From Dictyostelium discoideum (lineage: Eukaryota), in the NCBI GenBank assembly GCA_000004695.1, contig CM000151.3, forward strand, positions 7,104,001 through 7,168,000: a DNA stretch of 64,000 nt, written 5' to 3'. The position numbers were made by a program, and so were the translations under genes. Below are positions 30,904 through 59,633 of this stretch, piece by piece (the first letter of the stretch is position 1; each line of letters begins with the position of its first letter). The notes under the pieces were generated by a model. It did no database searches and was not told the origin of the DNA. It saw only the letters and a list, made by a program, of their open reading frames with translations.

Positions 30904-33016
<2,113 letters not shown>

Positions 33017-34750: not shown

Positions 34751-36054
34751 TGTGTATATTTTTAAAAATAAAAAAATAAAAAAAAAAAAAAAATTTCGAA
34801 GATTTCTTTTTTTCATAAAAAATTTAAAAAAAAAAAATTAAAAAAAAAATAAAAAAAAAAAATAAAAAAAAATTCAAAATTTTTATGTGATTGTTCATGT
34901 TTTTTGGGAAAATTAAAATATTGTTTACAAAAAAATATATATATATATAAATATTTATTAACTCCATTATCAAATTATTATTTTAATAAAAAAAGGAGAA
35001 ACCAAACCTAATAAAAATAAAAATAATAATAAAAGATAAAAAATAAAAATAATTATAAATATAATTATAATTAAAATTCAAATAGAAAAAAATAACAATT
35101 TAAAAAAAAAATAGTTATTTTTGTTGTACATTTTAAGTAATTTACAAAAAATAAAAATTTTCTAATATTGGGGCAATTTTTGTTTTCTAATACAAATTTT
35201 TTTTTTTTTTTTTTTTATTATTATTTGAATTGTTTTTGATGTAGATTTAGTTTTTATTTATTTCCAAAAAAAAAAAAAAAAAAAAAAAAAATAAAAACTA
35301 ATAATATTTGAACACACTTTGTACATAGAAAAGATTTATTTTTGGTAGTTAAAGTGGTTATAGAGAGAGAGAGGTGGTGATAATAAATTATTATTTTTTA
35401 ATTTTTTTTAATTTTTTTTTTTTCATACACTACACACACTCGCCATAAATTCACCATATACAAAAATAATAATAAATATATTATTGATTATTGATATATA
35501 TTGATTTTTTAATTTTTTAATTATTTAATTTTTTTATTTTTTTATTTTTTTTTTTTAATTAGTTTTTTTTATTAGTTTTTTTTTTTTTTTTTTTTTCTTT
35601 TTTTAATTTGAAAATAACCCCATTACCAATTAAATACATATTCCTTTTTATTTCCAAAACAACTCCTTTGAAAGTTATCATACCAAAAAATAAATAATAT
35701 AAATAAAAATAAAAATAATAATTTAACAATCACATAAAATACCAAATTTATTATTTTTTTTTTTAAATATTTTTTTTTTATTTTTCAATTTTTTTTCTTT
35801 TCAAAATCAAAAAAAAAAAAAAAAAATTTATTAATTTAATTATTTATTTATTTATTTATTTATATCTTTTTTTTTTTTTTTTTTATTTTTTGAATTTTTA
35901 TTTTTAATAAATTAATTAATTTTATTTTTTTGTATAAATTTTTTTTTTTATTTTATAAATAATTTTAATTATTATTTATTTATTTGTAAAAAATAAAAAA
36001 ACCAATAACAAAAAAACCAATAATAAAAAAACCAATAATAAAATAAAAACCATA

Positions 36055-37108
<1,054 letters not shown>

Positions 37109-37471
37109 AATAAAAAAATAAAAATAAAAAAAAAATAAAAATAAAAAATAAAAATAGAAAATTAAAAATAATTTTATTTTTCATATATGAAAAAATTATT
37201 TAAAAAAATATCTTTTTTTTATTTTCATATTTTTATTTTTTTTTTTATTTTTTTTTTTTTATTTCGAATTTTAAATTTTAAATTTCTTTTTTTAATTTTT
37301 TTTTTTTATTTTTTTATTTTTTTTTCTTTCTAAAAAAACCGGACAGTTTCAGCAAAACGACAGAATTTATAAATTTTCTAAAAATAACAAAAAAAAAAAA
37401 ATAATAATAAAATAGAATCAATAAAAGATTAAATAATTTCTATTAAATTATTCACTTTTCTTTTATTAGAA

Positions 37472-37512
<41 letters not shown>

Positions 37513-37542
37513 AAAAAAACATTCACAAAAAAAAAAAAAAAA

Positions 37543-39483
37543 ATGATATCAAGTGTTGCAAATTGGTTAAGTTGTGGAAGTAGTGTTGTTGATAAATGGA
37601 TATTTGGAGAAGGTGAAGATGAAGATACTACAAGTAGTAGTGGTGAATCAAATAGTGATTATAATAGTGAAGAAGAGGAAGAGGAAGAAGAGGAAGAAAA
37701 ACAACAAGATGAAGATTCATCAAGTGAAGAAGGTGAAATAAATGAAAAAAAGAAATCATCATCATCATCATCATCAAATTTAATTAGCAATAATAATAAT
37801 AGAATAAATAAAGATAATGATAATGATGGTGGATTAGTTTATGCATGGGGATATAACTATTTTGGACAATGTGGTGATAAAACCAATCAAACTATTAAAG
37901 TACCAACATCTATATTATTTCCTACTATTGATAATAAGATCATTATAAAACAAATAGCATGTGGTGATAGTCATTCATTGGCAATTGCAGAACAACCCTA
38001 TGGAGTCTATAGTTGGGGTGTTAATAGATGGGGTCAATTAGGTCATGGTGACCAATTGAATCGTAATCAACCAACATTACTTTCAAATATTGGTAGTGGT
38101 AGTGGTAGTGGTAATTCAATTTCATTTAGTATGGTAGCATGTGGTAGTCAACATTCTATGATAGTTTCGAACTATGGTGAGTTGTATACATTTGGTTGTG
38201 GTACAACTGGTAGATTAGGTCATGGTGATGAACAACCAAAATTCAAACCAACACCAGTTTCATCATTGGTTGGTAAATCAATTGTATCGGTTGCAGCTGG
38301 TGTTATGCATAGTTCTTGCGTCGATTCAAATGGTAAGATCTATAGTTGGGGTTGGAATAGGTATGGTCAATTAGGTAATGGTTCTGTTAAATCTCAAACT
38401 TTACCAACTCCTCCAAAATTTCAAAATCCAAAATTATCAGATATTCAACAACAACAACAGCAACACCATTTAATGAAATTAAATTTTATAAAAGTAGTAT
38501 GTGGTAAAAATCATACATTAGCATTGAGTTCAAGTGGTGAAGTGGTTGGATTTGGGTTTAATGCATGTGGTCAATTGGGTAATGGTAATCATATGGATCA
38601 GTTGTATCCAGTGAAAATTGAATTCAATGAACATGTAATTGACATTGCCTCGGGGTATTACCATAGTTTGTGTTTGACTGATAATGGTGAGGCTTATTCT
38701 TGGGGTTATATGAGTGATGGCTCGTTGGGGTTGGGTGAGGTTTACACTCATCAAACTAAACCAAAACTTATACCATTGGTTCATATTAGACATTGTTTCA
38801 CCGATTCAAACGATGCATTCAATGAGATCTATGGTAGACAAGATGAAAATACAACTCAGGAAACAATTGACCAACATAAATTATACCTCTCTAAAAAATA
38901 TTCAGTTGGTGATACTGTAGATATGATTTCAGCTGGTGCTTGGAATTCTGCTATCATCACAAGTTCTGGTAAATTATTTTGTTTTGGCTTTGGTGATACC
39001 TATAGAAATGGTAATCAATCAGAGTTTGATCAAGATATGCCCATCATTGTTGAACCAACTAAATGGGGTTTAGAAAGACCTTTCAATATAAAAGAGGATA
39101 CCGATATCCCTTTAAATTGTATCATCGAACAAGAAAAAGAAAGAAGATTATTAAAATTAAGAAAAAAACAATTAAAAGAACAAAAAGAAAAAGAAAGAAA
39201 AGATAAAGAAGAAATTAATTTAACAACTTCAAATTTTGAAAATAATTTAATAATAAATGAAGAAATTCAAAATAATAATAATTCAAATAATAATAATATA
39301 GATTCAACAAATTTAAATAATATAAATAATATAAATAATAATATAAATAATAATAATGAATCTCCAAATATAATTACAAATAAGATAAATTTAAATAATA
39401 TAAAAGTTTATTCAAGAGTTACAAATATTTCCTTAGGTGGTGCGCATGTAATAATCACTGTAAAGAATAAATTAAAAAAGTAA
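37543..39483 (+). CDS. RCC1-repeat protein (646 aa)
   Basis: At least six RCC1-like blades are visible (YAWGYNYFGQCGD, YSWGVNRWGQLGHGD, YTFGCGTTGRLGHGDE, YSWGWNRYGQLGNGS, VGFGFNACGQLGNGNH, YSWGYMSDGSLGLGE). It has an acidic/Ser N-terminus and a K/E/N-rich C-terminus. Confidence 0.7.
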   Translation: MISSVANWLSCGSSVVDKWIFGEGEDEDTTSSSGESNSDYNSEEEEEEEEEEKQQDEDSSSEEGEINEKKKSSSSSSSNLISNNNNRINKDNDNDGGLVYAWGYNYFGQCGDKTNQTIKVPTSILFPTIDNKIIIKQIACGDSHSLAIAEQPYGVYSWGVNRWGQLGHGDQLNRNQPTLLSNIGSGSGSGNSISFSMVACGSQHSMIVSNYGELYTFGCGTTGRLGHGDEQPKFKPTPVSSLVGKSIVSVAAGVMHSSCVDSNGKIYSWGWNRYGQLGNGSVKSQTLPTPPKFQNPKLSDIQQQQQQHHLMKLNFIKVVCGKNHTLALSSSGEVVGFGFNACGQLGNGNHMDQLYPVKIEFNEHVIDIASGYYHSLCLTDNGEAYSWGYMSDGSLGLGEVYTHQTKPKLIPLVHIRHCFTDSNDAFNEIYGRQDENTTQETIDQHKLYLSKKYSVGDTVDMISAGAWNSAIITSSGKLFCFGFGDTYRNGNQSEFDQDMPIIVEPTKWGLERPFNIKEDTDIPLNCIIEQEKERRLLKLRKKQLKEQKEKERKDKEEINLTTSNFENNLIINEEIQNNNNSNNNNIDSTNLNNINNINNNINNNNESPNIITNKINLNNIKVYSRVTNISLGGAHVIITVKNKLKK

Positions 39484-39861
39484 TTGTGTAGAAATAAAAT
39501 TAAAATAATTTTTTTTTTTTTTATTTTAATCACTATTTATCTATTATCAAATATTATTTTATTAATAGAAAAATGACGCAAATTATTTTTATTATTTTTT
39601 TTTTTTTTTTTTTTTTTGAATAAAGTATTTTTTTTTTAAATTTTCAAATAAAATAAAAATTATTATAAAAAAAAAAAGAGTGAAAAAATTTTTTAATTGT
39701 TTTTTTATTTGTTTTGAAAAAAAAAAAAAAAAAAAAAAAACTATAAATTGAAAGTTTTTTTTTTTATTTTAATAAATCAAGTTCACAAATATAAATCAAA
39801 TATATATATAAAATTAAATAGTATTAATACATAATTATAAAAAAAAAAAAAAATTTACAAA

Positions 39862-40625
39862 ATGACAAACAACAATTTAAATAAAGAAGGTAATTATTTA
39901 TTAAATAAAAATAAAAAAATAAAAAAAAAAATAAAAGTTTAAATTATTAATTTTTTAATTACATATATATGTTTTAATTAGTTAATCATTTAGAAAAAGA
40001 AGCAGTATCAGCATATGATAATACAAAAGAAGCAACAATTAATGCATACAATGCAACAACAAATGCAGTGAGTGATGGTATGAAATATGTTGGTGATTCA
40101 TTATCATCAGCAGTCGAAGTAACAAAAGATGCAACAATCAATATGTATAATGCAACAACTAATGCAGTGAGTGATGGTTATGAATCTTTAAAATCAAAAA
40201 CAAATGAATTAATCAGCAATACTCAAAATGAAAATGAAAATTTAAAAGATGGTGCTTCAAAGAAAATCGAAGAATTAAAAGATAAATCAAGTGAAGTAAA
40301 AGATAATTTAAAGGGAAAAGGTGAAGAACTAGTTGACGATGCTAAAGATGCTGCTCATAATGCTTCAAATAAATTGAATAATGCTAAAGATCAAGTTTCT
40401 GATAAAATGGATAATGTAAAAGATGATATAAAGAAAAAAGGTGAAGAAATAGTTGACAATTCTAAAGATGCTGCCAATAATACTTCAAATAAAATGAATA
40501 ATGTTAAAGATCAAGTTTCTGATAAAATGGAACATGTAAAACATGATATATCAAATAAATACAATGAAACAAAAACAGAAGCTTCCCATAAACTAAATCA
40601 AGCTGCAAATAAAATCGACCAATAA
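39862..40625 (+). CDS. LEA/apolipophorin-like hydrophilic repeat protein, array copy 1 (2 exons, about 223 aa)
   Basis: Exon 1 39862..39889 (MTNNNLNKE plus G; donor GT at 39890) and exon 2 39982..40625. The product continues VNHLEKEAVSAYDNTKEATINAYNATTNAVSDGMKYVGDSLSS... with about 40-aa repeats (KDAAHNASNKLNNAKDQVSDKMDNVKDDIKKKGEEIVD). Confidence 0.65.
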
Positions 40626-40840
40626 TTTTAAAATTAAAAATAAATTAAAGAAAAAAAAAAAGATTTAAAAAAATTAATTACACCTGTATTTATAGATTTT
40701 TATTTTTTTTAAATTTTTTCCAAAATTATCTTTTTTGAAAATCAATGTTTTTTAATTTTTTTTTTTTTTTTTTTAATTTTTAGTGTGAGATTTCCCATCC
40801 AAACTTTTTTTTTTTATTTTTTTTTTTTTTACAAAATAAT

Positions 40841-40924
40841 TATGTGTGCCGGGTTTCGATCCCGGGAATCGGTTAACGAAATGAAGCCCTGAACGTCACG
40901 CAATAACCACTCTGCCACACACTT
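40841..40924 (-). tRNA. tRNA-like gene with a long variable arm (type II; anticodon loop TTCAGGG, so Leu-CAG-like); imperfect stems, possibly a pseudogene
   Basis: The minus strand reads AAGTGTGTGGCAGAGTGGTTATTGCGTGACGTTCAGGGCTTCATTTCGTTAACCGATTCCCGGGATCGAAACCCGGCACACATA. It has A-box TGGCAGAGTGG, a T-arm CCGGG-ATCGAAA-CCCGG, a 16-nt variable arm, one A:A mismatch in the acceptor stem and one C:T mismatch in the anticodon stem. Confidence 0.45.
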
Positions 40925-41277
40925 AATTTTTTTTTTTTTTTTTTTAAATCGAAATTTTTATTATTTTTTTTTTCCAGATTATTTCTACTTAATCTTAGAA
41001 TCTTTGAGTTTTTTGGGAAATAAAAAAATAGTCAACAACCTCTCTTTTATATTAAATGAAAAAAAAAATTTCTAATTAATGGTTTTTAAGTTTAAATTCA
41101 ACATTAATTTTGGCAATCCAAAAAAAAAAAAAAAATTAATTTTTATTATTATTAGAAAAAAAAAAAAAAAATTTTTATTATTATTTTTTATTTAAATTTA
41201 ATTCGTTTATTTAATTTATAATAAAAAGTCGCCCAAATATATTAATGTTTTGTTTTGTTTTTTTTCTTTTTTTTTTT

Positions 41278-41517
41278 TCAATAATTTACAAAGTTTGGTC
41301 TTGTAAAAAATGATGATGCACTTATCAATGCAATTGTATCATTTGATTGATTGATTGAATTATTTAAATTATTTGAGATCGATGAATCACTTTTTGAAGA
41401 TGATTTAAATGAGAATGAAATTAATGATTCTAAATAATTTTTAAAAAAAAAGTTAATTAATAATTATTCATTGGAAAATAAAAAAATTATTGTTTAGAAA
41501 TACATACTGAATAACAT
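41278..41517 (-). CDS. small Ser/Asn-rich protein, MLFK...FFTRPNFVNY family, type-A copy 1 (53 aa)
   Basis: Exon 1 41508..41517 (ATGTTATTCA; donor GTATGT) and exon 2 41278..41429 (acceptor aaattatttag; phase 1). The product is MLFKSLISFSFKSSSKSDSSISNNLNNSINQSNDTIALISASSFFTRPNFVNY. Confidence 0.6.
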
Positions 41518-43001
41518 TTTAGTTTTTATTCTTTATATTAATAGTTTGATATTTAATTTTTAATATTTGTTTCAATTTGATAATGATTATTATTTTTTTT
41601 TTTTTCTATTTATACTTTTTTTTTTTTTACCCCATTTGTTTTTTTTTTTTTTTTTTTTAATTTTATTCTTTTCTAAAAATAACCACACTCTTTATTATAA
41701 TTAAACAATATTAAAAGAGTATTAAAATTAAATTTAAAATTATGTTGTCGACATAAACATTACCTTTTAAAAAATCAAAAATTAAATGTTATCAACATGA
41801 ATGAGATTTATGATTTTGTATTATTATTATTATTATTATTATTATTGGAACAATATTGATATTAATCATTTAAAATTCAAATTAAACCATAGTTTTAATA
41901 ATTATAATTGTTAAAATTATAATTGATATAATTATTAAAACTATGATTTAAAATAAAATAAATAATTTTTTATTTAAGAATAATAAAAGCCTAAATAAAT
42001 AAAAAATTGATTGGATTAATTTCCTTTATTAATTTATTTAATTAAAATAAAATAATTGGTTTTTGGTTTAATGAATTCCTTTATTGATTTTTGTTTGGTT
42101 GGTCGTTTTTAAATATTAATCCACATTGAATAAATAAATTTAAAAATTGGGAAATTATTTAAAGAATTCATATAAATTCTCTAATTAAAATAAAATTTAA
42201 AAACAATAGTTATTATTTTACCGAGATATCATCAAATGAATGTTTTCCAAAATTATAAAAAAAATAAATGTTCATTGTAATTGGATTTAAAAGAGTAGTT
42301 AACTTTGTTTTTTATTTATTTTAATTTTAGTTATTTTTTCAAAAAAACAGTGAGGATTAATTTTTTAAAAAAGAAATGGTAAATTAGAATTTTATCTATT
42401 GAAATGATATCACTTTCAATACATTGAGTTATTTAAAATGATGACATTATTTTTTTAATCATTTGTTTTTTGATTGCTTCATTTATAAATACACCATAAA
42501 TATTCCGTAAAAAACTAATTAATTTTGATAAAAAAAAATGATCTGAATGACATAATTTAAATATAGAAGAATAAATAAAAAAAAAATAATCATTTTTCAA
42601 TGATACTCATGGATTTTATTTTTATTCCCTTTAAAAGATGAGTAATTGAGGATTTTAAATGATTATTTTAATGATGTAAATAATGTTTTCAACTATTATA
42701 TTGAATCAATTTAACAATGATGATAGAATCATACTTTTTTTAGTGTGTAAAATAATAAAAAATATTTAAAAAATAAAAAAAAAAACTTTTTTTAAATCAA
42801 AAGATAATAAAATCATTATCTTGTACTTGTTAGTATCATACTTCTTGATTAAAATTTATTTACTTTATTATTTAACTTGTATGTCAACATAATAATTTTA
42901 CAAAAAAAATTAAATATTCCATATCTCTTGTTTAGGGTTATGTAGTGGTTAAAAATGGTGTAATTATTTAGCGGGGTAAAATAAAAAAAAAGATAAAAAA
43001 A

Positions 43002-43009
43002 AAAAAAAA
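43002..43009 (+). promoter_or_regulatory. TATA box (TATAAATA) about 95 bp upstream of B-type small gene 1
   Basis: gtataaatagaatttt is conserved upstream of all five B copies at the same distance. Confidence 0.4.
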
Positions 43010-43103
43010 AGTATAAATAGAATTTTTATTTTTTTAATTTATTCCAAAATAAAAACCAATTGTTAATTAAATAAATATATATTAAAAAAATCCTAAAAAT
43101 AAA

Positions 43104-43351
43104 ATGTTATTCAGTATGTATTTTAAAAAAAAAAAAAAAAAAAAAAAATTAAAAAACAAAATTCTAATTAATTTATTTTATTATTTATAGAATCAATTAT
43201 TTCATTATCAAATAAATCATCAAATGTTTCATCATCAAAATCATTATTATCAAATGACTCTAATTTAAATTCATTTGATTTTACATGTAATACTGTCTCA
43301 AATAAGAGTTCAACAACATTCTTTACAAGACCAAACTTTGTAAACTATTAA
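43104..43351 (+). CDS. small Ser/Asn-rich protein, MLFK family, type-B copy 1 (56 aa)
   Basis: Exon 1 43104..43113 (ATGTTATTCA; donor GTATGT) and exon 2 43191..43351 (acceptor ttatttatag). The product is MLFKSIISLSNKSSNVSSSKSLLSNDSNLNSFDFTCNTVSNKSSTTFFTRPNFVNY. Confidence 0.6.
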
Positions 43352-44981
43352 AAAAAAAAAAAAAAAATTAAAAATTTTAATTAAAGTACGAACATAAAAA
43401 ACTTATTTATTAAAAATGTACCGACCAAATTTGTAAATAAAATAAAAAAACAATAAAAAACATTTAAAAAAAAAAAAAAAAAAATTTTTTTTTGTTTAAA
43501 TTATTTGTATTTTACTAAAAAAAAAAAAAAAAAATAGAATGAAGTGGATTTTATGATTAATATTTTTTAAATCGATTTTCATTTATTAAACTCTTATATA
43601 AATATAATAATCTATTAAAAATTAAAAAATCTTTTTTTTTTTTTTTATCACATTTTAAAATTATTTATTAATTTAATAAATTTTATTATTGGTATTATTT
43701 TTTTTAATATTAAATTATAAATAAATGATTATTAAATTATTATTATTCATAAGAAAATAATATTATGTTTTGATTTTTTTATAATAAAAAAGGAATAAAT
43801 TATTTAAAAAAATAAAAAATTTTTATTTTGTTGGGTTATATAGTTTTTATAGCCCAATTAAGAATTCATAAGTCATATAGGCCGTGTAGCATTTGTTAAA
43901 TGGACTATAATTATTATATCCCAAATAGTCCTTTTAAAAATTTTACCTGGCTGTGAACATTGTATATTGGGTTCCTTTATTTATTTTTGTTTGGTTGGTA
44001 ATTTCTTTAAAAATATTAATCCATTTTGATCAAATAAATTAAGGAATTGGGAAATATATTAGAGAATTAATTTATATTTTATAATAATTTTATTTTTAAA
44101 TTTATTTTTATTATTTTAAAAAGTTGTCCTCAAATGAAAGTATTTCAAAATTTTTAAAAAAATAATCATTGCAAAAGGAATTTTCTTTAAAAGAGTACTT
44201 TAGTTTTGTTATTAATCTTATTTATATTGATTTTAGTTATTTTAATTATTTTTTAAATAGCCAATGGGATTAGTTTCTTTTTATCTATTGAAATGATCAT
44301 TTTAAATACAATCAATGATTTTATAATGATGATATTATTTGGTCCTTTGTTTTATAATTTCTTCATTTATATATACATCCCTTAAAAATTAAATATTCTT
44401 GATTTAATATATAATCTAATTGATATAATTTAAATAAAAACAAAAAAAAGAAATATAAAAACATCATTTTTCGATGATACTTGTGGGTTATCATTTTTTT
44501 CCCTTTAAAAGATGAGTAATTGAGGACTTTAAATGATTATTTTAATTATGTAAATAATGTTTTCAACTATTTTATTGAATCAATTTAACAATGATGATAG
44601 AATCATATATTTATTTAGTGTCGAAAATAATAAAAAATAAAAAAAAAAAATAAAAAAAAAACTTTTTTAAATCAAAAGATAATGAAATCATAATCTTGTA
44701 CTTGTTAGTATCATACTTCTTGATTAAAATTTATTTACTTTATTATTTAACTTGTATGTCAACATAATAATTTTACAAAAAAATATAATATTCCTTATCT
44801 CTTGTTTAGGGTTCTGTAGTGGTTAAAAATGGGGTAATTATTTAGTGGGGTAAAATAAATAAAAAAAGATAAAAAAAAAATAAAAAAAAAAGTATAAATA
44901 GAATTTTTATTTTTTTAATTTATTCCAAAATAAAAATCAATTGTTAAATAAATAAATATAAATTAAAAAAAACCTAAAAAA

Positions 44982-45229
44982 ATGTTATTCAGTATGTATT
45001 AAATAAAAAAAAAAAAAAAAAATTAAAAAAATAACAAAATTCTAATTAATATATTTTATTATTTTTAGAATCAATTATTTCATTATCAAATAAATCATCA
45101 AATGTTGCATCATCAAAATCATTATTATCAAATGACTCTAATTTAAATTCATTTGATTTTACATGTAATACTGTCTCAAATAAGAGTTCAACAACATTCT
45201 TTACAAGACCAAACTTTGTAAACTATTAA
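44982..45229 (+). CDS. MLFK family type-B copy 2
   Basis: Exons 44982..44991 and 45069..45229. It has the same structure and is near-identical to B1 (NVASSKS variant). Confidence 0.6.
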
Positions 45230-45530
45230 AAAAAAAAAAAAAAACAATTAAAAATTAATTAAAGTGCGAAACATAAAAAAAACTTATTTATTAAAAAGGG
45301 ACCGACCAAATAAAAAAAAAAATTAAAAAAAAAATTTTATTATAAATTTTGTTTAACTTTTTCGTAAATTATTTGTGGATTTTAGTTTTTTTTTTTTTTG
45401 GGCTTTTTCTTTAAATGATTATTTTGTGACTATGATTTATTAAAAAAATTAAAAAAAACAAAAAAAAACATTTTCAAATGAAATTTAAACCATTATAATA
45501 ATATACAACCACTTATTTTTATAAATTTCA

Positions 45531-45564
<34 letters not shown>

Positions 45565-45778
45565 ATAATTATTTTTTATTTGAATAAATAAAATTGTGGT
45601 AAATTTTTTATTACATATTGGTATATAAATAATTTTTTTTAATTGAATTTTAATTAATTATTTTTCATATTTTAAAAAAGATTCAAATAAATAATTTTAT
45701 AATAAAATAAAAAAGAAAGAAAATAATTTATTTGATTTTTTTTTTTTTTTTTTTAATAAAAAATGAAAAAGAAAAAAC

Positions 45779-45786
45779 TATAAATA
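45779..45786 (+). promoter_or_regulatory. TATA box about 95 bp upstream of LEA-like copy 2
   Basis: actataaatagaataaattaaat is conserved upstream of LEA copies 2-6 (also at 47607, 51246, 55032 and 58652). Confidence 0.4.
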
Positions 45787-45873
45787 GAATAAATTAAATT
45801 ATTATTTCAATCAAAAAATATTAAACAAATAAAATTTTAAAAGTAATACTACAAAATAAAGAAATAATAAAAA

Positions 45874-46633
45874 ATGACAAACAACAATTTAAATAAAGAA
45901 GGTTGGTATATAACTACCCCAATATGAAATTTAATTTAATATATAGTTATTAATATAATTTTTTTTTTTTTTAAAATTACAAAATTTAGTTAATCATTTA
46001 GAAAAACAAGCAGTATCAGCATATGATAATACAAAAGAAGCAACAATCAACGCATACAATGCAACAACAAATGCAATGAGTGATGGTATGAAATATGTTA
46101 GTGACTCATTATCATCAGCAGTCGAAGTAACAAAAGATGCAACAATCAATATGTATAATGCAACAACTAATGCAGTGAGTGATGGTTATGAATCTTTAAA
46201 ATCAAAAACAAATGAATTAATCAACAATACTCAAAATGAAAATGAAAATTTAAAAGATGGTGCTTCAAAGAAAATCGAAGAATTAAAAGATAAATCAAGT
46301 GAAGTAAAAGATAATTTAAAGGAAAAAGGTGAAGAACTAGTTGACGATGCTAAAGATGCCGCTCATAATGCTTCAAATAAATTGAATAACGCTAAAGATC
46401 AAGTTTCTGATAAAATGGATAATGTAAAAGACGATATAAAGAAAAAAGGTGAAGAAATAGTTGACAATTCTAAAGATACTGCCAATAATACTTCAAATAA
46501 AATGAATAATGTTAAAGATCAAGTCTCTGATAAAATGGAACATGTAAAACATGATATGTCAAACAAATACAATGAAACAAAAACAGAAGCTGCTCATAAA
46601 CTAAATCAAGCTGCAAATAAAATCGATCAATAA
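45874..46633 (+). CDS. LEA-like repeat protein, array copy 2
   Basis: Exons 45874..45901 and 45990..46633. The frame is open through both exons and the internal ATG is at 46076. Confidence 0.65.
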
Positions 46634-46802
46634 TAAAATTAAATAAAGAAAAAAAAAAAATCCAACATTTAATAGAATAAAAAAAAAAAAAAACAAAATC
46701 AATTCTTATGTTTTATATAAATTTAATTCGTTTATTTAATTTATAATAAAAAGTCGCCCAAATATTTTAATGTTTATAAAGTTTGTTTTTTTTTTTTTTT
46801 TT

Positions 46803-47040
46803 TTAATAATTTACAAAGTTTGGTCTTGTAAAAAACGACGATGCACTTATCATTACAATTGTATCATTTGATTGATTTATTGTATTATTTAAATTGTTAG
46901 AGATCGATGAATCACTTTTTGAATATGATTTTAATGAAAATGAAGTTAATGATTCTAAAAAATTTTAAAAAAAAAAGTTAATTAATAATTTATTCATTGG
47001 AAAAAAAAACTATTATTTAAAAATACATACTGAATAACAT
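46803..47040 (-). CDS. MLFK family type-A copy 2
   Basis: Exons 47031..47040 and 46803..46954. The product is MLFKSLTSFSLKSYSKSDSSISNNLNNTINQSNDTIVMISASSFFTRPNFVNY. Confidence 0.6.
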
Positions 47041-47076
47041 TTTGATTTTTTTTTCTTTATTTATATTAAAAGTTTA

Positions 47077-47176
47077 NNNNNNNNNNNNNNNNNNNNNNNN
47101 NNNNNNNNNNNNNNNNNNNNNNNNNNNNNNNNNNNNNNNNNNNNNNNNNNNNNNNNNNNNNNNNNNNNNNNNNNNN
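47077..47176. other. assembly gap (100 N) inside the tandem array
   Basis: A run of N; the flanks correspond to non-adjacent parts of the repeat unit. Confidence 0.95.
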
Positions 47177-47706
47177 TGACTTTTAATAAATCATTTGATT
47201 TTGAAAAAAAAAAAAAAAATTGTAATAAACTGAAATGTGTACGAGATTTAATGACAATGGGTTTTTAAAATAAAAAATAAAAAAAAAAGGATGATTTCCA
47301 AATGAAAAATTATTAAACAATTATAATAATACAACCTCCTATTTTTATAAATTTACCCCAAAAAAAAAAAAAAAATAAAAAAAAAAAAAAAATTTTTATT
47401 ATTTGAAAAATAAAAAATTATTAATAATTGTGATAATTTTTCAATTACATCATGGTATATAATTAATTTTTTTTTAATTGAATTATTTTTCATATTTTAA
47501 AAAAGATTCAAATAAATAATTTTATAATAAAATAAAAAAGAAAGAAAATAATTTATTTGATTTATTTTTTTTTTTTTTTTTTTTTAAAAAATGAAAAAGA
47601 AAAAACTATAAATAGAATAAATTAAATCATTATTTCAATCAAAAAATACCCAAACAAATAAAATTAAAAAGTAATACTACAAAATAAAGAAATAAGAAAA
47701 TAAAAA

Positions 47707-48462
47707 ATGACAAACAACAATTTAAATAAAGAAGGTTGGTATTGAACTAATCCAATATGAAATATATTTTAAAATATTAATAAAATTTTTTATTTATTTT
47801 CAAAATTACAAAATTTAGTTAATCATTTAGAAAAACAAGCAGTATCAGCATATGATAACACAAAAGAAGCAACAATCAATGCATACAATGCAACAACAAA
47901 TGCAATGAGTGATGGTATGAAATATGTTGGTGATTCATTATCATCAGCAGTCGAAGTAACAAAAGATGCAACTATCAATATGTATAATGCAACAACTAAT
48001 GCAGTGAGTGATGGTTATGAATCTTTAAAATCAAAAACAAATGCATTAATCAACAATACTCAAAATGAAAATGAAAATTTAAAAGATGGTGCTTCAAAGA
48101 AAATCGAAGAATTAAAAGATAAATCAAGTGAAGTAAAAGATAATTTAAAGGGAAAAGGTGAAGAACTAGTTGACGATGCTAAAGATGCTGCTCATAATGC
48201 TTCAAATAAATTAAATAACGCTAAAGATCAAGTTTCTGATAAAATGGATAATGTAAAAGACGATATAAAGAAAAAAGGTGAAGAAATAGTTGACGATGCT
48301 AAAGATACTGCCAATAATGCCTCAGATAAATTGAATAATGTTAAAGATCAAGTCTCTGATAAAATGGAACATGTAAAACATGATATGTCAAACAAATACA
48401 ATGAAACAAAAACAGAAGCTGCTCATAAACTAAATCAAGCTGCAAATAAAATCGATCAATAA
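47707..48462 (+). CDS. LEA-like repeat protein, array copy 3
   Basis: Exons 47707..47734 and 47819..48462. Confidence 0.65.
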
Positions 48463-48616
48463 TAAAATTTTAAAACTAAAAGTAAAAAAAAAAATCCAAT
48501 AAATTGTATAAAAAAAAAAAATTATTATATCAATTCTTATGTTTTTATATAAATTTAATTCGTTTATTTAATTTATAATTATAAAAAGTCGCCCAAATAG
48601 TTTAATTTTTTTTTTT

Positions 48617-48856
48617 TTAATAATTTACAAAGTTTGGTCTTGTAAAAAATGATGATGTACTTTTCATAACAATTGTATCATTTGATTGATTGATTGAAAT
48701 ATTTAAATTGTTTGAGATCGATGAATCACTTTTTAATGATGATTTTAATGAAAATGAAATTAATGATTCTAAAAAATTTTTAAAAAAAAAGTTAATAATT
48801 TATTCATTGGAAAAAAAAAAAAAAAATATTGTTTAAATATACATACTGAATAACAT
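48617..48856 (-). CDS. MLFK family type-A copy 3
   Basis: Exons 48847..48856 and 48617..48768. Confidence 0.6.
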
Positions 48857-50410
48857 TTTAATTTTTTTTCTTTTTTTATATTAATAGTTAAATATTTAAT
48901 TTTTTATATTCTTTTTATTTTGATAATGATTATTATTTTTTTTTTTTCTATTTATACTTTTTTTTTTACCCCATTTGTTTTTTTTTTTTTTTTTTTTTTT
49001 TAATTTTATTCCTTTTTAAAATAATTAAACAAATGAAAAGAGTATAACAATTTAAATTAAAATTATGTTGTTGACATAAACATTACCTTGTAAAATATCA
49101 AACGATATATGTTATCAACATGTATGAGATTTATTATTATATGTTATTATTATTATTATCATTATGTTTTTTCAATGTCATTATTTAATTTTAAAATAAA
49201 CCAAAGTTTTAATAATAATATTTATAGTTTTTTAATAATTTAATTATACATAATATTGATTTTTCATTTTTTTCTTTTATAAATTTTATATAAATTTAAT
49301 ATTTTAGAATTATAAAAACCAAAATAAATCAAAAAATTGCACGTGTGGTTGTATCAATTTCTTTTTTCTAGAACAATTAATTGTTTGGAATGTATACTAG
49401 ATTCCTTTATTTTCTTTTGTTTGATTAGAAATTGTTTTAAAATATCAATCCACATTGAACAAATAAATTTTAAAATTGGGAAATTAATTAGGGAATTAAT
49501 ATTTTAAATATATTTAAAAAATAAAATTTTAAAAAAAAAAATAATTTTACCAAGTTGTCCTCTACGAAATTTATATAAAAATAAAAATTCATTGTAATTG
49601 GAATTTTATAAGAGTAGTTTATTTTGTTTTTTATCTTATTTATTTTATTTTATTGATTTTTGTTATTTTTTCAAAATACCGATGAGGATATGTTTTTTAA
49701 AAAAGAAATGTTATATTAGAATTATCTATTGAAATGATATATTTCAATACAATCAATAATTTAAAATGATAATATATTTTTTAATCTTTGTTTTTAATAT
49801 TCATTTATTAATATATCATAAACAATCCTAAAAATTACCTATGTTTGATTAAAAAATAATCTATATGACATAATTTTAAAATAAAAAGAATAAAAACATC
49901 ATTTTTCAGTGATACTCATGGATTTTCATTTTTTTCCCTTTAAAAGATGAGTAATTGAGGATTTTAAATGATTATTTTAATGATGTAAATAATATTTTCA
50001 ACTATTTTATTGAATCAATTTAACAATGATGATAGAATCATACATTTATCCAGTGTATAAAATAATTAAAATTATATAAAAAATAAAAAAACAAACTTTT
50101 TTTTAAATCAAAAGATATAAAATCATTATCTTGTACTTGTTAGTATCATACTTCTTGATTAAAATTTATTTACTTTATTATTTAACTTGTATATCAACAT
50201 AATAATTTTACAAAAAAAATAAAATATTCCATATCTCTTGTTTAGGGTTCTGTAGTGGTTAAAAATGGGGTAATTATTTAGTGGGGTAAAATAAAAAAAA
50301 AGAAAAAAAAAAAAAAAAAAAAAAAAAAGTATAAATAGAATTTATATTTTTTTAATTTATTCCAAAATAAAAATCAATTGTTAATTAAAAAAATAAATCC
50401 TAAAAATAGA

Positions 50411-50651
50411 ATGTTATTCAGTATGTATATTTATAAAAATAAAAAAATTTAGTAAACAAAATCCTAATTAATTTATTTTATTATTTATAGAATCAATTAT
50501 TTCATTATCAAATAAATCATCAAATGTTGCATCATCAAAATCATTATTATCAAATGACTCTAATTTAAATTCATTTGATTTTACATGTAATACTGTCTCA
50601 AATAAGAGTTCAACAACATTCTTTACAAGACCAAACTTTGTAAATTATTAA
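50411..50651 (+). CDS. MLFK family type-B copy 3
   Basis: Exons 50411..50420 and 50491..50651. Confidence 0.6.
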
Positions 50652-50997
50652 AAAAAAAAAAAAAAATTAAAAAAATTAATTAAAGAACGAATCATAAAAA
50701 AAACTTATTTATTAAAAAGGGACCGACCAAATGTATTAAATAAAATAAAACATTAAAAAATAATTTAAAAAAAAAATTATATTATCGTAATTTTGTGTAA
50801 TTTTTCATAAATCATTTGAGATTTTGTAAAAAAAAAAAAAAAAAATTAGAATTGATCAACTTAATTGTGTATGAGATTTAAGACAATGGATTGTTAAAAA
50901 TATATAAAAATAAAAACAAAAAGGATGATTTCCAAATGAAAAAATTATTAAACCATTATAATAAAAAAACATCCACCTATTTTTATAAATTTCCCCC

Positions 50998-51028
<31 letters not shown>

Positions 51029-51345
51029 TATTATTTGAAAAAATAAAAAATTATTAATAATTGTGATAATTTTTTTTATTACATCATGGTATATAATTAA
51101 TTTTTTTTTAATTGAATTTTAAATAATTATTTTTCATATTAAAAAAGATTCAAATAAATAATTTTAAAATAAAATAAAAAAGAAAGAAAATAATTTATTT
51201 GATTTATTTTTTTTTTTTTTTTTTATAAAATGAAAAAGAAAAAACTATAAATAGAATAAATTAAATTATTATTTCAATCAAAAAATACCCAAACAAATTA
51301 AATTAATAAGTAATACTACAAATTAAAGAAATAAAAAAATAAAAA

Positions 51346-52107
51346 ATGACAAACAACAATTTAAATAAAGAAGGTTGGTATATAACTACTCCAATATGAA
51401 ATTTAATTTAATATATAGTTATTAATATAATTTTTTTTTTATTTTCAAATTTATAAAATTTAGTTAATCATTTAGAAAAACAAGCAGTATCAGCATATGA
51501 TAATACAAAAGAAGCAACAATCAACGCATACAATGCAACAACAAATGCAATGAGTGATGGTATGAAATATGTTAGTGATTCATTATCATCAGCAGTCGAA
51601 GTAACAAAAGATGCAACTATCAATATGTATAATGCAACAACTAATGCAGTGAGTGATGGTTATGAATCTTTAAAATCAAAAACAAATGAATTAATCAACA
51701 ATACTCAAAATGAAAATGAAAAGTTAAAAGATGGTGCTTCAAAGAAAATCGAAGAATTAAAAGATAAATCAAGTGAAGTAAAAGAAAATCTAAAAGAAAA
51801 AGGTGAAGAACTAGTTGACGATGCTAAAGATGCCGCTCATAATGCTTCAAATAAATTGAATAACTCTAAAGATCAAGTTTCTGATAAAATGGATAATGCA
51901 AAAGACGTAATTAAGAAAAAAGGTGAAGAAATAGTTGACGATTCTAAAGATACTGCCAATAATACTTCAAATAAAATGAATAATGTTAAAGATCAAGTTT
52001 CAGATAAAATGGAACATGTAAAACATGATATATCAAATAAATACAATGAAACAAAAACAGAAGCTGCTCATAAACTAAATCAAGCTGCAAATAAAATCAA
52101 CCAATAA
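51346..52107 (+). CDS. LEA-like repeat protein, array copy 4
   Basis: Exons 51346..51373 and 51464..52107. Confidence 0.65.
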
Positions 52108-52193
52108 TAAAATTTTAAAACTAAAAATTAAATAAAAAAAAAAGATTTAAAATAATTAACTACCACAAAGACCAATTTTTAATATCAGTAATC

Positions 52194-52229
<36 letters not shown>

Positions 52230-52347
52230 AACAATAAATTGTTTTTAAAAAAAAAAAAAATTATTATTATTATCTATTTTTATTTTTTTTATATAAATTT
52301 AATTCGTTTATTTAATTTATAATAGAATGTCGCCCAATATTTAAATG

Positions 52348-52374
<27 letters not shown>

Positions 52375-52380
<6 letters not shown>

Positions 52381-52614
52381 ATTTACAAAGTTTGGTCTTG
52401 TAAAAAATGATGATGCACTTATCATTGCAATTGTATCATTTGATTGATTGATTGAATTATTTAAATTGTTTGAGATCGATGAATCACTTTTTGAAGATGA
52501 TTTTAATGAAAATGAAATTAATGATTCTAAATAATTTTAAAAAAAAAAAAGTTAATAATTAATTCATTGGAAAAAAAAAAAATTACTGTTTTAGAAATAC
52601 ATACTGAATAACAT
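52375..52614 (-). CDS. MLFK family type-A copy 4
   Basis: Exons 52605..52614 and 52375..52526. Confidence 0.6.
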
Positions 52615-52905
52615 TTTATTTTTTCTTTTTATATTAATAGTTTAATATTTAATTTTTTAAATTCGTTTTAATTTGATAATGATTATTTTTTTTTTTTCTA
52701 TTTATACTTTTTTTTTTTACCCCCTTTGTTTTTTTTTTTTTTAATTTTTCTTTTCTAGAAATAACCACACTCTTTATTAAAATTAAACAATATTAAAAGA
52801 GTATTAATAAAATTAAATTTAAAATTGTGTTGTCGACATAAACATTACCTTTTAAAAAATCAAAAGATATATATGTTATCAACATGTATGAGATTTATGA
52901 TTTTA

Positions 52906-52941
<36 letters not shown>

Positions 52942-54213
52942 TTTTATTATTTAAATATTAATTATTTTAAAATAAACTATAGTTTTAAAAATTATAATTA
53001 TAGTTTTTTAATAATTCAACATAATATACAATAAAAATTAATATGATTTTTTTGTTTTTTTTCTTTTTTATATTTTATATAATTTTATATTTTAGAATAA
53101 TAAAAACCAGAATAAATTAGAAAATTGATTGTATGAATTTTCTTTTTTAATTATTTCACTAAAATTGAAAAATTAATTGTTTGGTTAGAATTCCTTTTTT
53201 TATTTTTGTTTGGTTAGAAAATGTTTTTAAAATACAAATCCACATTGGTCAAATAAATTTAGAAATTAGGAAATTAATTAGAGAATTTATATATTTAAAA
53301 TAAATTTTATTAAAAATAATTATTTTATACAGTGGCCCTCAAACGAAAGTTTTTTAAATTATTAAAAAATAAATATTCATTGCAATTGGATTTAAAAGAG
53401 TAGTTTATTTTGTTTCTAATTTAACTTATTTTTTTTATTTTGACTTTTGTCATTTTTCAATATACCGATGAGCATTGGTTTTAAAAAAAGAAATGGTAAA
53501 TTAGAATTTTATCTATTGAAATGATATCATTTTCAATACAATCAATAATTTTAAAATGATGAAATTATTTTTTTTATCCTTTGTTTGTAATTCTTCATTT
53601 ATAAATACATCATAAATAATCCCTAAAAAATTAACTAATTTTGATCAAAAAAATGACATAATCTTAAATAAAAAAAATAAAAAAAAGAAAAAAAACATCA
53701 TTTTTCAATGGTACTCATGGATTTTTTATTTTTATTCCCTTTAAAAGATGAGTAATTGAGGATTTTAAATGATTATTTTAATGATGTAAATAATGTTTTC
53801 AACTATTTTATTGAATCAATTTAACAATGATGATAGAATCATACTTTTTAAATGTATAAAATAAAAATAAAAATTTAAAAAATAAAAAAACAAACTTTTT
53901 TTAAATCAAAAGATAATAAAATCATTATCTTGTACTTGTTAGTATCATACTTCTTGATTAAAATTTATTTATTTTATTATTTAACTTGTATGTCAACATA
54001 ATAATTTTACAAAAAATAAAATATTCCATATCTCTTGTTTAGGGTTCTGTAGTGGTTAAAAATGGGGTAATTATTTAGTGGGGTAAAATAAAAAAAAAAG
54101 ATAAAAAAAAAAATAAAAAAAAAGTATAAATAGAATTTTTATTTTTTTAATTTATTCCAAAATAAAAATCAATTGTTAAATAAATAAATATAAATTAAAA
54201 AAAACCTAAAAAA

Positions 54214-54465
54214 ATGTTATTCAGTATGTATTTTTTATATAAAAAAAAAAACAAATTAAAAAAAAAAAACAAAATTTAATAAACAATTTCTAATTAATTT
54301 ATTTTATTATTTTTAGAATCCATTATTTCATTATTAAATAAATCATCAAATGTTGTTTCATCATCAAAATCAAATGACTGTAATATTAATTCATTTGATT
54401 CAACATGTAATACTGTCTCAAATAAGAGTTCAACAACATTCTTTACAAGACCAAACTTTGTGAAC

Positions 54466-54471
<6 letters not shown>
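54214..54471 (+). CDS. MLFK family type-B copy 4 (54 aa; 6-nt shorter variant)
   Basis: Exons 54214..54223 and 54317..54471. The product is MLFKSIISLLNKSSNVVSSSKSNDCNINSFDSTCNTVSNKSSTTFFTRPNFVNY. Confidence 0.55.
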
Positions 54472-54513
<42 letters not shown>

Positions 54514-54788
54514 AAAAAAATTAAAGTACGAACTTATTTATTAAAAAGGGACCGACCAATATAAAAAATAAAAAAAACAATAAAAATTAGAAATTTTGTT
54601 TGACTTTTCATAAATCATTTGTAAATTAGTAAAAAAATAAAAAAATGCTAATTTAACTGTAATGTGTATGAGTTAAATTTATTCAATGACTATGAGTTGT
54701 TAAAAAATAAATACCAAGGATCATTTTCAAATGAATAAATATTAAACCATTATAATAATATAACACCTATTTTAATAAAAAAAAAAAA

Positions 54789-54819
<31 letters not shown>

Positions 54820-55327
54820 ATTATTTATTATTTGAATAAAATTATAATTGTGGTAATTTAATTACATCTTGGTATATAATTGTTATGTACTTAATTTTTT
54901 TTAATTGAATTTTATATAATTTTTTTCATATTTTGAATGATTCAAATAAATAATTTTAAAATAAAATAAAAAAGAAAGAAAATAATTTATTTGATTTATT
55001 TTTTTTTTTTAAAAAATGAAAAAGAAAAAACTATAAATAGAATAAATTAAATCATTTTTTTTATCAAAAATTATTAAACAAATAAAATTAAAAAGTAATA
55101 CTACAAATTAAAGAAATAAAAAAATGACCAACAACAATTTAAATAAAGAAGGTTGGTATATAACTTATTCAATATGAAATATATTTTTAACAAATATAGT
55201 TATTAATATAATTTTTATATTTTCAAAATGATTAAACTTAGTTAATCATTTAGAAAAAGAAGCAGCATCAGTATATGATAATAAAAAAGAAGCAACAATT
55301 AATGCATATAATGCAACAACAAATGCA

Positions 55328-55852
55328 ATGAGTGATGGTATGAAATATGTTGGTGATTCATTATCATCAGCAGTCGAAGTAACAAAAGATGCAACTATCA
55401 ATATGTATAATGCAACAACTAATGCAGTGAGTGATGGTTATGATTTTTTAAAATCAAAAACAAATGAATTAATCAGCAATACTCAAAATGAAAATGAAAA
55501 TTTAAAAGATGGTGCTTCAAAGAAAATCGAAGAATTAAAAGATAAATCAAGTGAAGTAAAAGATAATTTAAAGGAAAAAGGCGAAGAACTAGTTGACGAT
55601 GCTAAAGATGCTGCTCATAATGCTTCAAATAAATTGAATAACGCTAAAGATCAAGTTTCTAATAAAATGGATAATGTAAAAGATGATATAAAGAAAAAAG
55701 GCGAGGAAATAGTTGACGATGCTAAAGATGCTGCCAATAAAGCTTCTGATAAAATGGAACATGTAAAACATGATATATCAAATAAATACAATGAAAAAAA
55801 AACAGAAGCTGCTCATAAACTAAATCAAGCTGCAAATAAAATCGACCTATAA
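55328..55852 (+). CDS. LEA-like repeat protein, array copy 5 (174 aa from the internal ATG; one 40-aa repeat fewer)
   Basis: The upstream mini-exon (55124..55151, ATGACCAAC...) and intron are present. A 1-nt insertion (gaaaaagaaAgc at about 55255..55262) shifts the N-terminal extension out of frame and gives a TGA after 12 codons. The open frame therefore starts at ATG 55328. Confidence 0.5.
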   Translation: MSDGMKYVGDSLSSAVEVTKDATINMYNATTNAVSDGYDFLKSKTNELISNTQNENENLKDGASKKIEELKDKSSEVKDNLKEKGEELVDDAKDAAHNASNKLNNAKDQVSNKMDNVKDDIKKKGEEIVDDAKDAANKASDKMEHVKHDISNKYNEKKTEAAHKLNQAANKIDL

Positions 55853-56081
55853 TAAAATTTTAAAACAAAAAATTAAATAAAAAAAAAGATTTTAAAAAAT
55901 TAATTACTTTTATTTAACCAACAATCTTATCTAAAAAAAAAAAAACCAAAAATAAATTGTATAAAAAGAAAAAAAAAATAATTTTATCAATTTTTATTTT
56001 TTATTATTAATTTAATTCGTTTGTTTAATTTATAATAGAATGTCGCCCAATATTTTAATGTTTCAAAAGTTTTTTTTTTTT

Positions 56082-56328
56082 TTAATAATTTACAAAGTTT
56101 GGTCTTGTAAAAAATGATGATGTACTTTTCATAACAATGGTATCATTTGTTTGATTTATTGAATTATTTAAATTGTTTGAGATCGATGAATCACTTTTTG
56201 AAGATGATTTAAATGAAAATGAAATTAATGATTCTAAATAATTTAAAAAAAAAAAAAGTTAATAATTAATTCATTGGAAAAAAAAAATAAAAAAAATATA
56301 TTGTTTAAAAATACATACTGAATAACAT
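56082..56328 (-). CDS. MLFK family type-A copy 5
   Basis: Exons 56319..56328 and 56082..56233. Confidence 0.6.
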
Positions 56329-57839
56329 TTTATATTTTCTTTTTTATATTAATAGTTTAATTTTTAATTTTTATTATTCGTTTTAATTTGATAATGATTA
56401 TTTATATTTTTTTTCTATTTATACTTTTTTTTTTTGACCCTGTTTTTTTTGTTTTTTTTTTAATTTTATTCTTTTCTAGAAATAACCACACTCTTTATTA
56501 AAATTAAACAATATTAAAAGAGTGTTAAAATTAAATTTAGAATTGTGTTGTCGACATAAACATTACCTTTTAAAAAATCAAAAGATATGTTATCAACATG
56601 TATTAGTTTATGAATTTAGGTTATTATTATGGAAACAATATTGTTTTAATATTAATTATTTTATTTTCAAAATAAACCATAGTCTTAATAATTATTTTTA
56701 TAGTTTTTTATTATTTAATTTAAAAATATATTTATTTTTATGATTTTTATTTTAGAATAAATAAAAACCAAAATAAAAATATATCAATTTTTTTTTTTAA
56801 ATTTTTTAAGTAATATGGAACAATTAATTGTTTGGAATGGATATTAGATTCATTTATTGATTTTTGTTTGGTAAGTAATTGTTTTTAAAATATAAATCCA
56901 CTTTGATCAAATAAATTTAGAAATAGGGAAATAAATTAGAGAATTAATATAAATTTTAATAATAAAATTTTAAAATAATTATTTTACAAAGATGCCCTCA
57001 AATAAAATTTTTCAAAATTATTAAAAAATAAATATTCATTGCAATTGAAATTAAAAGAGTAGTTTTATTTTATTTTTATTGTTTACTTATATTGATTTTT
57101 GATTTTTTTTTATAAAAGAAATGGTAAATTAGAGTTCTACCTTTTGAAATGAAACCACTTTAAATACAATCGAAAATTTAAAAATGATATTGTTTTTTAA
57201 TCATTTTTTTAATTTCATCATTTATAAATACATCATAAATAATCCCTAAAAAATTTTGATCAAAAAAATAATCTGAATGACATAATTTATAAATAAAAAA
57301 TAAAAAAAAAGAATAAAAACATCATTTTTCAATGATACTCATGGATTTTTTATTTTTATTCCCTTTAAAAGATGAGTAATTGAGGATTTTAAATGATTAT
57401 TTTAATGATGTAAATAATGTTTTCAACTATTTTATTGAATCAATTTAACAATGATGATAGAATCATACTTTTTTTAGTGTGTAAAATAATAAAAAATATT
57501 TAAAAAATAAAAAACAAACTTTTTTTAAATCAAAAGATAATAAAATCATTATCTTGTACTTGTTAGTATCATACTTCTTGATTAAAATTTATTTACTTTA
57601 TTATTTAACTTGTATGTCAACATAATAATTTTACAAAAAAATAAAATATTCCATATCTCTTGTTTAGGGTTCAATAGTGGTTAAAAATGGGGTAATTATT
57701 TAGTGGGGTAAAAAAAATAAAAATATAAAAAAAAAATAAAAAAAAAAAGTATAAATAGAATTTTTATTTTTTAATTTATTCCAAAATAAAAATCAATTGT
57801 TTATTAAATAAATATAAATTAAATAATCCTAAAAATAAA

Positions 57840-58080
57840 ATGTTATTCAGTATGTATTAAAAAAAAAAAAAAAAAATTTAATAAAAAAAATTCTAATTAA
57901 TTTATTTTATTATTTATAGAATCAATTATTTCATTATCAAATAAATCATCAAATGTCTCATCATCAAAAACATTATTATCAAATGACTCTAATTTAAATT
58001 CATTTGATTTAACATGTAATACTGTCTCAAATAAGAGTTCTACAACATTCTTTACAAGACCAAACTTTGTAAACTATTAA
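57840..58080 (+). CDS. MLFK family type-B copy 5
   Basis: Exons 57840..57849 and 57920..58080. Confidence 0.6.
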
Positions 58081-58757
58081 AAAAAAAAAAAAAAAAAAAA
58101 ATTAATTAAAGTACGAATCATAAAAAAAACTTATTTATTAAAAAGGGACCGACCAAATATATAAAATAAAAAAAATAAAATAAAATTTAAAAAAAAAAAT
58201 TATTATACCGCAATTTTGTATAACTTTTATTTGTGAATTATTAAAAAAAAAAAAAAAAAAATAACCAGAATTTTTGTAATGAAAAACTGTAATATTTGAT
58301 TTGTATGAGATTTAAGAAATCCAAAAAAAGATTATTTAATGACTATGATTAAATTAAACCATCATAATAATATCAACCCATATTTTTATAAATTTCCCCA
58401 AAAAAAATAAAAAAAATAAAAAAAATAAAAATAAAAAAAAAAAAAATAAAATAATTATTTATTATTTGAATAAATATAATTGTGGTAATATAATTACATC
58501 TAGGTACATAATTAATTTTTTTTTAATTGAGTTTTAAATAATTATTTTTCATATTTTAAAAAATATTCAAATAAATAATTATTTATATTAAAAAAAAAAA
58601 GAAATAATTAATTTGATTTAATTTTTTTTTAAAAAAATGAAAAGAAAATACTATAAATAGAATAAATTAATTCATTATTTCAATCAAAAAATATTAAACA
58701 AATAAAATTAAAAAGTAATACTACAAAATATAGAAATAACAAAAAAGAAAATAAAAA

Positions 58758-59633
58758 ATGACAAACAACAATTTAAATAAAGAAGGTTGGTATACAATGT
58801 TATGAAATATAATTTAATATATAGTTATTAATAAAAATTTTTTTATTTATTAATAATTACAAAATTTAGTTAATCGTTTAGAAAAACAAGCAGTATTAGT
58901 ATATGATAATACAAAAGAAGCAACAATCAATGCATACAATGTCACAACAAACGCAATGAGTGATGGTATGAAATATGTTAGTGATTCATTATCATCAGCA
59001 GTCGAAGTAACAAAAGATGCAACTATCAATATGTATAATGCAACAACTAATGCAGTGAGTGATGGTTATACATCTTTAAAATCAAAAACAAGTGAATTAA
59101 TCAGCGATACTCAAAATGAAAATGAAAATTTAAAAGATGGTGCTTCAAAGAAAATCGAAGAATTAAAAGATAAATCAAGTGAAGTAAAAGATATTTTAAA
59201 GGAAAAAGGTGAAGAACTAGTTGAAGATGCTAAAGATGCTGCTCATAATGCTTCAAATAAATTGAATAATGCTAAAGATCAAGTTTCTGATAAAATGGAT
59301 AATGTAAAAAATGATATAGAGAAAAAAGGTGACGATGCTAAAGATGCTAAAGATGCTGCCAATAATGTTTCAAATAAAATGAATAATGTTAAAGATCAAG
59401 TTTCTGATAAAATGGATAATATTAAAGACGATATAAAGAAAAAAGGTAAAGAATTAGTTGACGATGCTAAAGATGCTGCCAATAATGCTTCAAATAAATT
59501 GAATAACGCTAAAGATCAAGTTTCAGATAAAATGGAACATGTAAAACATGATATATCAAACAAATACAATGAAACAAAAACAGAAGCTGCTCCTAAACTA
59601 AATCAAGCTGCAAATAAAATCGACCAACAATAA
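58758..59633 (+). CDS. LEA-like repeat protein, array copy 6 (longest; 225 aa from the internal ATG, three 40-aa repeats)
   Basis: Exons 58758..58785 and 58870..59633. Confidence 0.65.

Follow-up and report, generated by a model that had tools for sequence, protein, structure and literature searches.

The window, by which we mean the whole 64-kb stretch of the Dictyostelium discoideum AX4 reference that was analysed, has a GC content of 21% and carries a tandem array of six units on the (+) strand (39862-59633), which was delineated by self-BLAST, open reading frames, splice models and unit alignment. In the self-BLAST the array appears as direct repeats of about 3.7 kb with 82-92% identity, extending from about 39.6 to 59.7 kb; in the unit alignment the pairwise identity of the units is 89-92%. 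The order within a unit is an LEA-like gene (+), a tiny MLFK gene (-), an AT-rich spacer of about 1.5 kb and a second MLFK gene (+). The inverted MLFK gene, which the original prediction had missed, directly follows the LEA-like gene; after about another 1.5 kb comes the forward MLFK gene, which is separated from the next LEA-like gene downstream by about 700 bp. As the reference stands, with its gap unfilled, the array holds six LEA-like genes and ten MLFK genes, five on each strand.

In the LEA-like gene model, a first exon of 28 nt is separated by about 90 nt of intron from a second exon of 558 nt, and the product has 223 aa. All copies are on the (+) strand. Products of 223 aa are encoded by copy 1 (39862-40625), by the two-exon copy 2 (45874-46633; the "A-type copy 2" of the original prediction), by copy 3 (47707-48462) and by copy 4 (LEA4, 51346-52107). 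Copy 5 (LEA5, 55124-55852) gives 212 aa after splicing and has a different C-terminus (...KIDL), and copy 6 (LEA6, 58758-59633) gives 263 aa; these length differences come from internal repeat blocks that were lost or gained. In an hmmscan search the 223-aa products matched YtxH (PF12732) with 43.8 bits (E = 3.6e-11), above the gathering cut-off of 37.5. Weaker matches were obtained to apolipoprotein A1/A4/E and apoLp-III, DUF883 and others were also listed, and the products are rich in K/D/E/N repeats. No match to the LEA_4 (group 3 LEA) profile was listed by hmmscan at E values up to 1. Among the amphipathic repeat proteins of the YtxH, apolipoprotein and LEA-like kind, the array products thus share the YtxH match but differ in having no LEA_4 match, and "LEA" is for these genes a composition label, not a family assignment. 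Neither the LEA-like open reading frames nor the spliced proteins had an exact match in the protein collection. With LEA4 as the query, a homology search yielded only two paralogues (50-54% identity); they come from another locus in other strains and have no bearing on the gap discussed below. Among the literature matches listed for late embryogenesis abundant and Dictyostelium, none had Dictyostelium in its title or abstract.

Other Dictyostelium assemblies contain two further LEA-like genes as a pair (L002 8717-10618 and L003 8734-10674), with products of 174-192 aa that are 50-54% identical to those of the array; this pair lies beyond an FNIP-repeat gene and one or more TmcB-like TPR genes. 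In our window the FNIP-repeat gene occupies 59692-61720, and the end of the window (62879-64000) falls inside the first TmcB-like gene. When this TmcB-like fragment was used as a query, the only match was a fragment of 108 aa from a short-read assembly.

Each MLFK gene is a tiny gene of two exons, in which ATGTTATTCA is followed by an intron and by an exon that ends in ...FFTRPNFVNY*, and each product has 53-56 aa. The literal string MLFK was not found in the plain six-frame translation of the window; it emerges only when a short intron after the first 10 bases is spliced out. The two-exon models match the AX4 hypothetical proteins DDB_G0276699/701/703/723/737/741/749/751 exactly; the AX4 identifiers listed for the family are DDB_G0276699/701/703/723/737/741/743/749/751. 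Unit 1 contains B'1 (41278-41517, -), B1a (43104-43351, +) and B1b (44982-45229, +). Unit 2 contains B'2 (46803-47040, -), which is DDB_G0276723, with 53 aa and an exact protein match to EAL69119.1. Its unit-3 counterpart is B'3 (DDB_G0276749; 48617-48856, -), which is accompanied by B3 (DDB_G0276751; 50411-50651, +). B'4 (52375-52614, -) and B4 (54214-54471, +) belong to unit 4, and B'5 (56082-56328, -) and B5 (57840-58080, +) to unit 5. The two MLFK genes of a unit are arranged head-to-head; their products share conserved ends (MLFKS... and ...FFTRPNFVNY) and have diverged in the middle, and the pair has been amplified together with the LEA-like gene. The MLFK proteins had no Pfam match, and for six MLFK gene identifiers and the neighbouring DDB_G0276697 no mention was found in the literature.

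Unit 1 is longer than the others, with an interval of 6,008 bp. Half of the unit is duplicated (42076-43454 matches 43972-45335 with 84% identity), which gives rise to two forward MLFK genes, B1a and B1b. The duplication is identical in the independent assembly described below and hence is real and not a misassembly. A further insert of about 480 bp (40626-41105), specific to unit 1, lies between the stop of LEA1 and B'1 and contains a tRNA-Leu(CAG) gene (40840-40925, -). Elsewhere in the window there is a tRNA-Ala(AGC) gene (18699-18771); self-BLAST also showed two stretches of about 230 bp that are 93% identical in inverted orientation (22487-22715 and 23174-23400, arms about 460 bp apart). 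A degenerate short-period repeat extends over about 1 kb (5327-6291), and tracts of the trinucleotide type are common to several loci, e. g. 28600-28860 and 36770-37000. Internal tandem and simple-sequence repeats of this sort are typical Dictyostelium low-complexity sequence.

The array is interrupted by the single N run of the entire window, which occupies 47077-47176 and thus has exactly 100 N. It lies within the stretch (47041-47180) at which the original prediction had placed a missing spacer and MLFK segment. By INSDC/AGP convention exactly 100 N stand for a scaffold gap of unknown length, so the number of N gives no information about the size of the gap. The accession numbers of the AX4 proteins rise from EAL69105 to EAL69119 ahead of the gap and fall from EAL69079 to EAL69072 behind it, a change of direction that fits two separately deposited contigs. 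The gap starts on the 5' side of the inverted B'2, 36 bp from its ATG, and the sequence picks up again about 150 bp beyond the unit-3 equivalent of the end of the forward MLFK gene. In the self-BLAST, 47177 pairs with 54601, a position 130 bp beyond the end of the B4 reading frame.

To place the gap within the unit, the 3,645 bp of 48463-52107 served as a reference unit onto which the array was mapped. Ahead of the gap, 46629-47074 corresponds to reference-unit positions 4-427; behind it, 47181-48462 corresponds to positions 2340-3645, the latter with 92% identity. Positions 428-2339 of the unit are absent between the flanks, both of which belong to one unit and have the same orientation and the expected order. 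The sequence from 47177 to 47706 (+) is therefore the region downstream of a forward MLFK gene, up to the start of an LEA-like gene, and both the unit mapping and the alignments bear out the original prediction on this point. The block that had been quoted there, GTGTACGAGATTTAATGACAATGG (the GTGTACGAG... block), is found at 47237-47260 within the post-gap sequence; in unit 3 it corresponds to 50867-50889, which lies 216 bp beyond the stop of B3. The 24-mer had no match within 5 edits in units 1, 4 and 5; the region around it still aligns.

The intervals between the stops of successive LEA-like genes lead to the same picture. The interval that holds the gap has 1,829 bp, compared with 3,645, 3,745 and 3,781 bp in the intact units. 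In a MAFFT alignment the span equivalent to the gap has 1,906 bp in unit 3, 1,956 bp in unit 4 and 1,861 bp in unit 5, and the intact units thus predict that 1,861-1,956 bp are missing. In unit 3 the equivalent of the hidden stretch is 48892-50796 (+), which comprises the spacer and B3. Judged from the window alone, the missing length would be about 1.9 kb plus an unspecified whole number of units.

An independent assembly contains the corresponding stretch. The RCC1-like open reading frame next to the array (37543-39483) is identical to AX4 DDB_G0276695, and its protein is also encoded on contig JBTAPE010000033.1 (4,885,842 bp) of GCA_054883475.1. The comparison sequence, L001, consists of this RCC1-like locus with 10 kb on each side. 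L001 1-19518 aligned in one piece with window 27501-47076 at 99.58% identity, and L001 21438-21941 aligned with window 47177-47680 at 100% identity. The comparison covers 19.5 kb upstream of the gap and extends to window 47680, i. e. it includes the proximal 2.2 array units and the gap. The distal three units, to which the question of the gap does not extend, are contiguous in AX4 and contain no N. The 223-aa LEA-like model is annotated twice in L001, at 12317-13080 for copy 1 and at 18316-19075 for copy 2. At both junctions 40 bases on each side are identical between L001 and the window, so that the flanks agree completely up to the N run.

In L001 the N run is replaced by 1,919 bp (19519-21437) that contain no N and have a GC content of 14.7%. 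Homopolymer runs reach T17 and A26, and several 200-bp windows in or just outside the filler have only 7.5-10.5% GC, which places the stretch among the most AT-rich DNA of the region. Over its full length it could be aligned with 48892-50796 of unit 3 (84% identity), and its best match to any unit of the window, over part of its length only, was 90%. With at most about 90% identity to the other units, the filler is a distinct unit segment and no copy of another unit. It contains an intact forward two-exon MLFK gene, B2 (L001 21029-21278), whose splice signals are normal and whose product is MLFKSIISLSNKSSNVASSKSLLSNDSNLNSLDLTCNTVSNKSSTTFFTRPNFVNY. Compared with the AX4 hypothetical MLFK proteins, this product keeps the MLFKS... 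start and the ...FFTRPNFVNY end, but differs by ..SLDLTC.. in between. The variant (..NSLDLTC..) is absent from a collection of 15 billion proteins that does contain its paralogues, as hypothetical proteins of AX4.

Rebuilt with the filler, unit 2 has 3,648 bp, which compares with 3,645, 3,745 and 3,781 bp in units 3-5, and its identity to these units is 90-92%. The filler amounts to 0.52 of one unit and adds neither an LEA-like gene nor a whole unit. These data uphold the core of the original prediction, that a spacer and an MLFK segment are missing at the gap: the flanks end at unit positions 427 and 2340, and the filler contains both elements. The size given there, 2.5-3.5 kb, was too large in view of the 1,861-1,956 bp predicted by the intact units and the 1,919 bp present in L001. 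Likewise, its suspicion that the copy number of the array is probably too low, possibly because whole units were lost, finds no counterpart in the long-read-era assembly, which is colinear and adds only about half a unit.

These conclusions depend on how well the independent assembly can stand in for AX4. Over the 19.5 kb, L001 and the window differ by 19 substitutions and 21 indels, and these differences are concentrated in homopolymers and in a few patches of about 100 bp. Such patches, consisting of 1-2 bp indels and A/T substitutions, are located at window 30787-30909, 35108-35227 and 43417-43517. In the first of these a large (-) gene has a disrupted reading frame in AX4, whereas L001 (3001-3700) is open over 233 codons; this points to errors in the old reference rather than to divergence of the strains. 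The patches are probably low-quality stretches of the AX4 reference. From a wild isolate, substitutions that are more numerous and more evenly spread than those seen in L001 would be expected. Holland et al. described ten de novo assemblies from Nanopore and Illumina data, among them one of the laboratory strain AX2-214, and reported AX4 and AX2 to be 99.5% identical at a different complex locus (PMC12745789). Given the same level of identity and the near-identity of the sequences at our locus, the assembly that fills the gap, which is not AX4 itself but a strain near-identical to it, is probably AX2-214, the sister of AX4. We infer that the content of the gap in AX4 is the same as in this near-identical strain.

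The explanation that we consider highly likely is that the 100 N represent a contig gap of unspecified length within unit 2, which hides about 1.9 kb of sequence and no whole unit. In the Sanger-era reference of AX4 chromosome 2, two contigs would have been joined across the gap by a placeholder. The hidden stretch would comprise a very AT-rich spacer of about 1.5 kb, the intact two-exon MLFK gene B2 and the adjoining 160 bp or so downstream of B2. LEA-like genes would then very probably stay at six, and MLFK genes would very probably go from ten to eleven.

The alternative that holds up best is that the gap in AX4 hides at least one whole extra unit, in which case the missing length would be 1.9 kb plus about 3.7 kb for each such unit and AX4 would have more than six LEA-like copies. 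The positions of the flanks on their own allow any whole number of units in addition to the 1.9 kb, and the 100 N set no size against this. The structure of the array also varies, as is seen in the half-unit duplication of unit 1 and in the rearranged end of the array in D. cf. discoideum. In this possible cryptic sister species, the locus L004 12032-22031 (GCA_054859205.1) represents the orthologous array end and has the same type of unit, with one full-unit alignment at 84%; its 10 kb contain only one annotated LEA-like gene of 223 aa. The end of its array is rearranged and partly inverted, which indicates that the array structure changes between close relatives. As a guide to the copy number in AX4 the locus was dropped, because it is too divergent. 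However, exactly 1,919 bp occupy the position of the gap in the independent, near-identical assembly, which is colinear on both sides. In addition, both assemblies have the strain-specific duplication of unit 1 and the tRNA insert in common, and at about 90% unit identity a collapse of distinct units would be unexpected even with Sanger reads. Hence we regard extra units in AX4 as very improbable. If they were present, the gene count of AX4 would be under-represented, as the original prediction suspected. The related notion that AX4, by carrying one or more extra units in the gap, differs from its sister laboratory strain by a copy-number polymorphism of the LEA-like and MLFK genes appears very improbable.

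Still less probable is that the gap in AX4 hides sequence foreign to the array, such as a transposon, an inversion or the breakpoint of a rearrangement in the AX3/AX4 lineage. Assembly gaps often coincide with repeats, and lineage-specific structural changes of AX4 are known on chromosome 2 (PMC12745789). Yet the flanks lie in the same orientation and in the right order within one unit and are 100% identical to L001 right up to the N run, and in the near-identical assembly the site is occupied by ordinary unit sequence, which runs colinearly and contains nothing foreign. Finally, a false gap, at which the contigs abut or overlap and nothing is missing, is practically out of the question: we found no support for it, the flanks lie about 1.9 kb apart in unit register, the interval would have 1,729 bp compared with about 3,700 and would be devoid of the forward MLFK gene that every other unit has, and the independent assembly carries 1,919 bp between the flanks.

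Within the favoured reading, a contig gap that hides about 1.9 kb of unit 2, the origin of the gap can be sought in the hidden sequence itself. DNA that is rich in A/T and in homopolymers and is situated between paralogues is known to pose difficulties for cloning and for Sanger shotgun sequencing. With its GC content of 14.7%, its runs of up to A26 and flanking paralogous units of about 90% identity, the stretch may have been hard to clone, sequence and assemble in this way, and the gap may have arisen from this and not from repeat collapse. For units that are only about 90% identical, repeat collapse is no natural explanation of the gap. Pairing of B'2 with the oppositely oriented B2 was also considered as a cause; with 105 nt, 76% complementarity and arms 1.9 kb apart, this inverted repeat is too weak.

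The gap resembles two known situations to different degrees. Like other scaffold gaps of unknown length, it consists of 100 N, probably between two contigs, and the true 1,919 bp bear no relation to the number 100; nothing about it is out of the ordinary, and its chance location inside a tandem gene array gave rise to the suspicion of a collapse. With the collapsed tandem repeats of draft assemblies it shares the position in an array of units of about 3.7 kb. Unlike in these, the units are only about 90% identical and hence too diverged to merge, the 0.52 unit of filler completes a single unit, and the independent assembly has no extra whole units.

For users of the AX4 reference, the practical value of the result is small. 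The reference and the annotation derived from it are without about 1.9 kb and one tiny gene, and since the public long-read-era assembly has already resolved the gap, its content is already known. For copy counts, the figure of six LEA-like genes can stand. The MLFK gene in the filler is the eleventh member of an uncharacterised family of "MLFK...FVNY" proteins of 53-56 aa. The array as a whole, independently of the gap, is an unstudied cassette, in which a YtxH/LEA-like gene and two tiny genes in divergent arrangement have been amplified six times, and as such it may merit attention.
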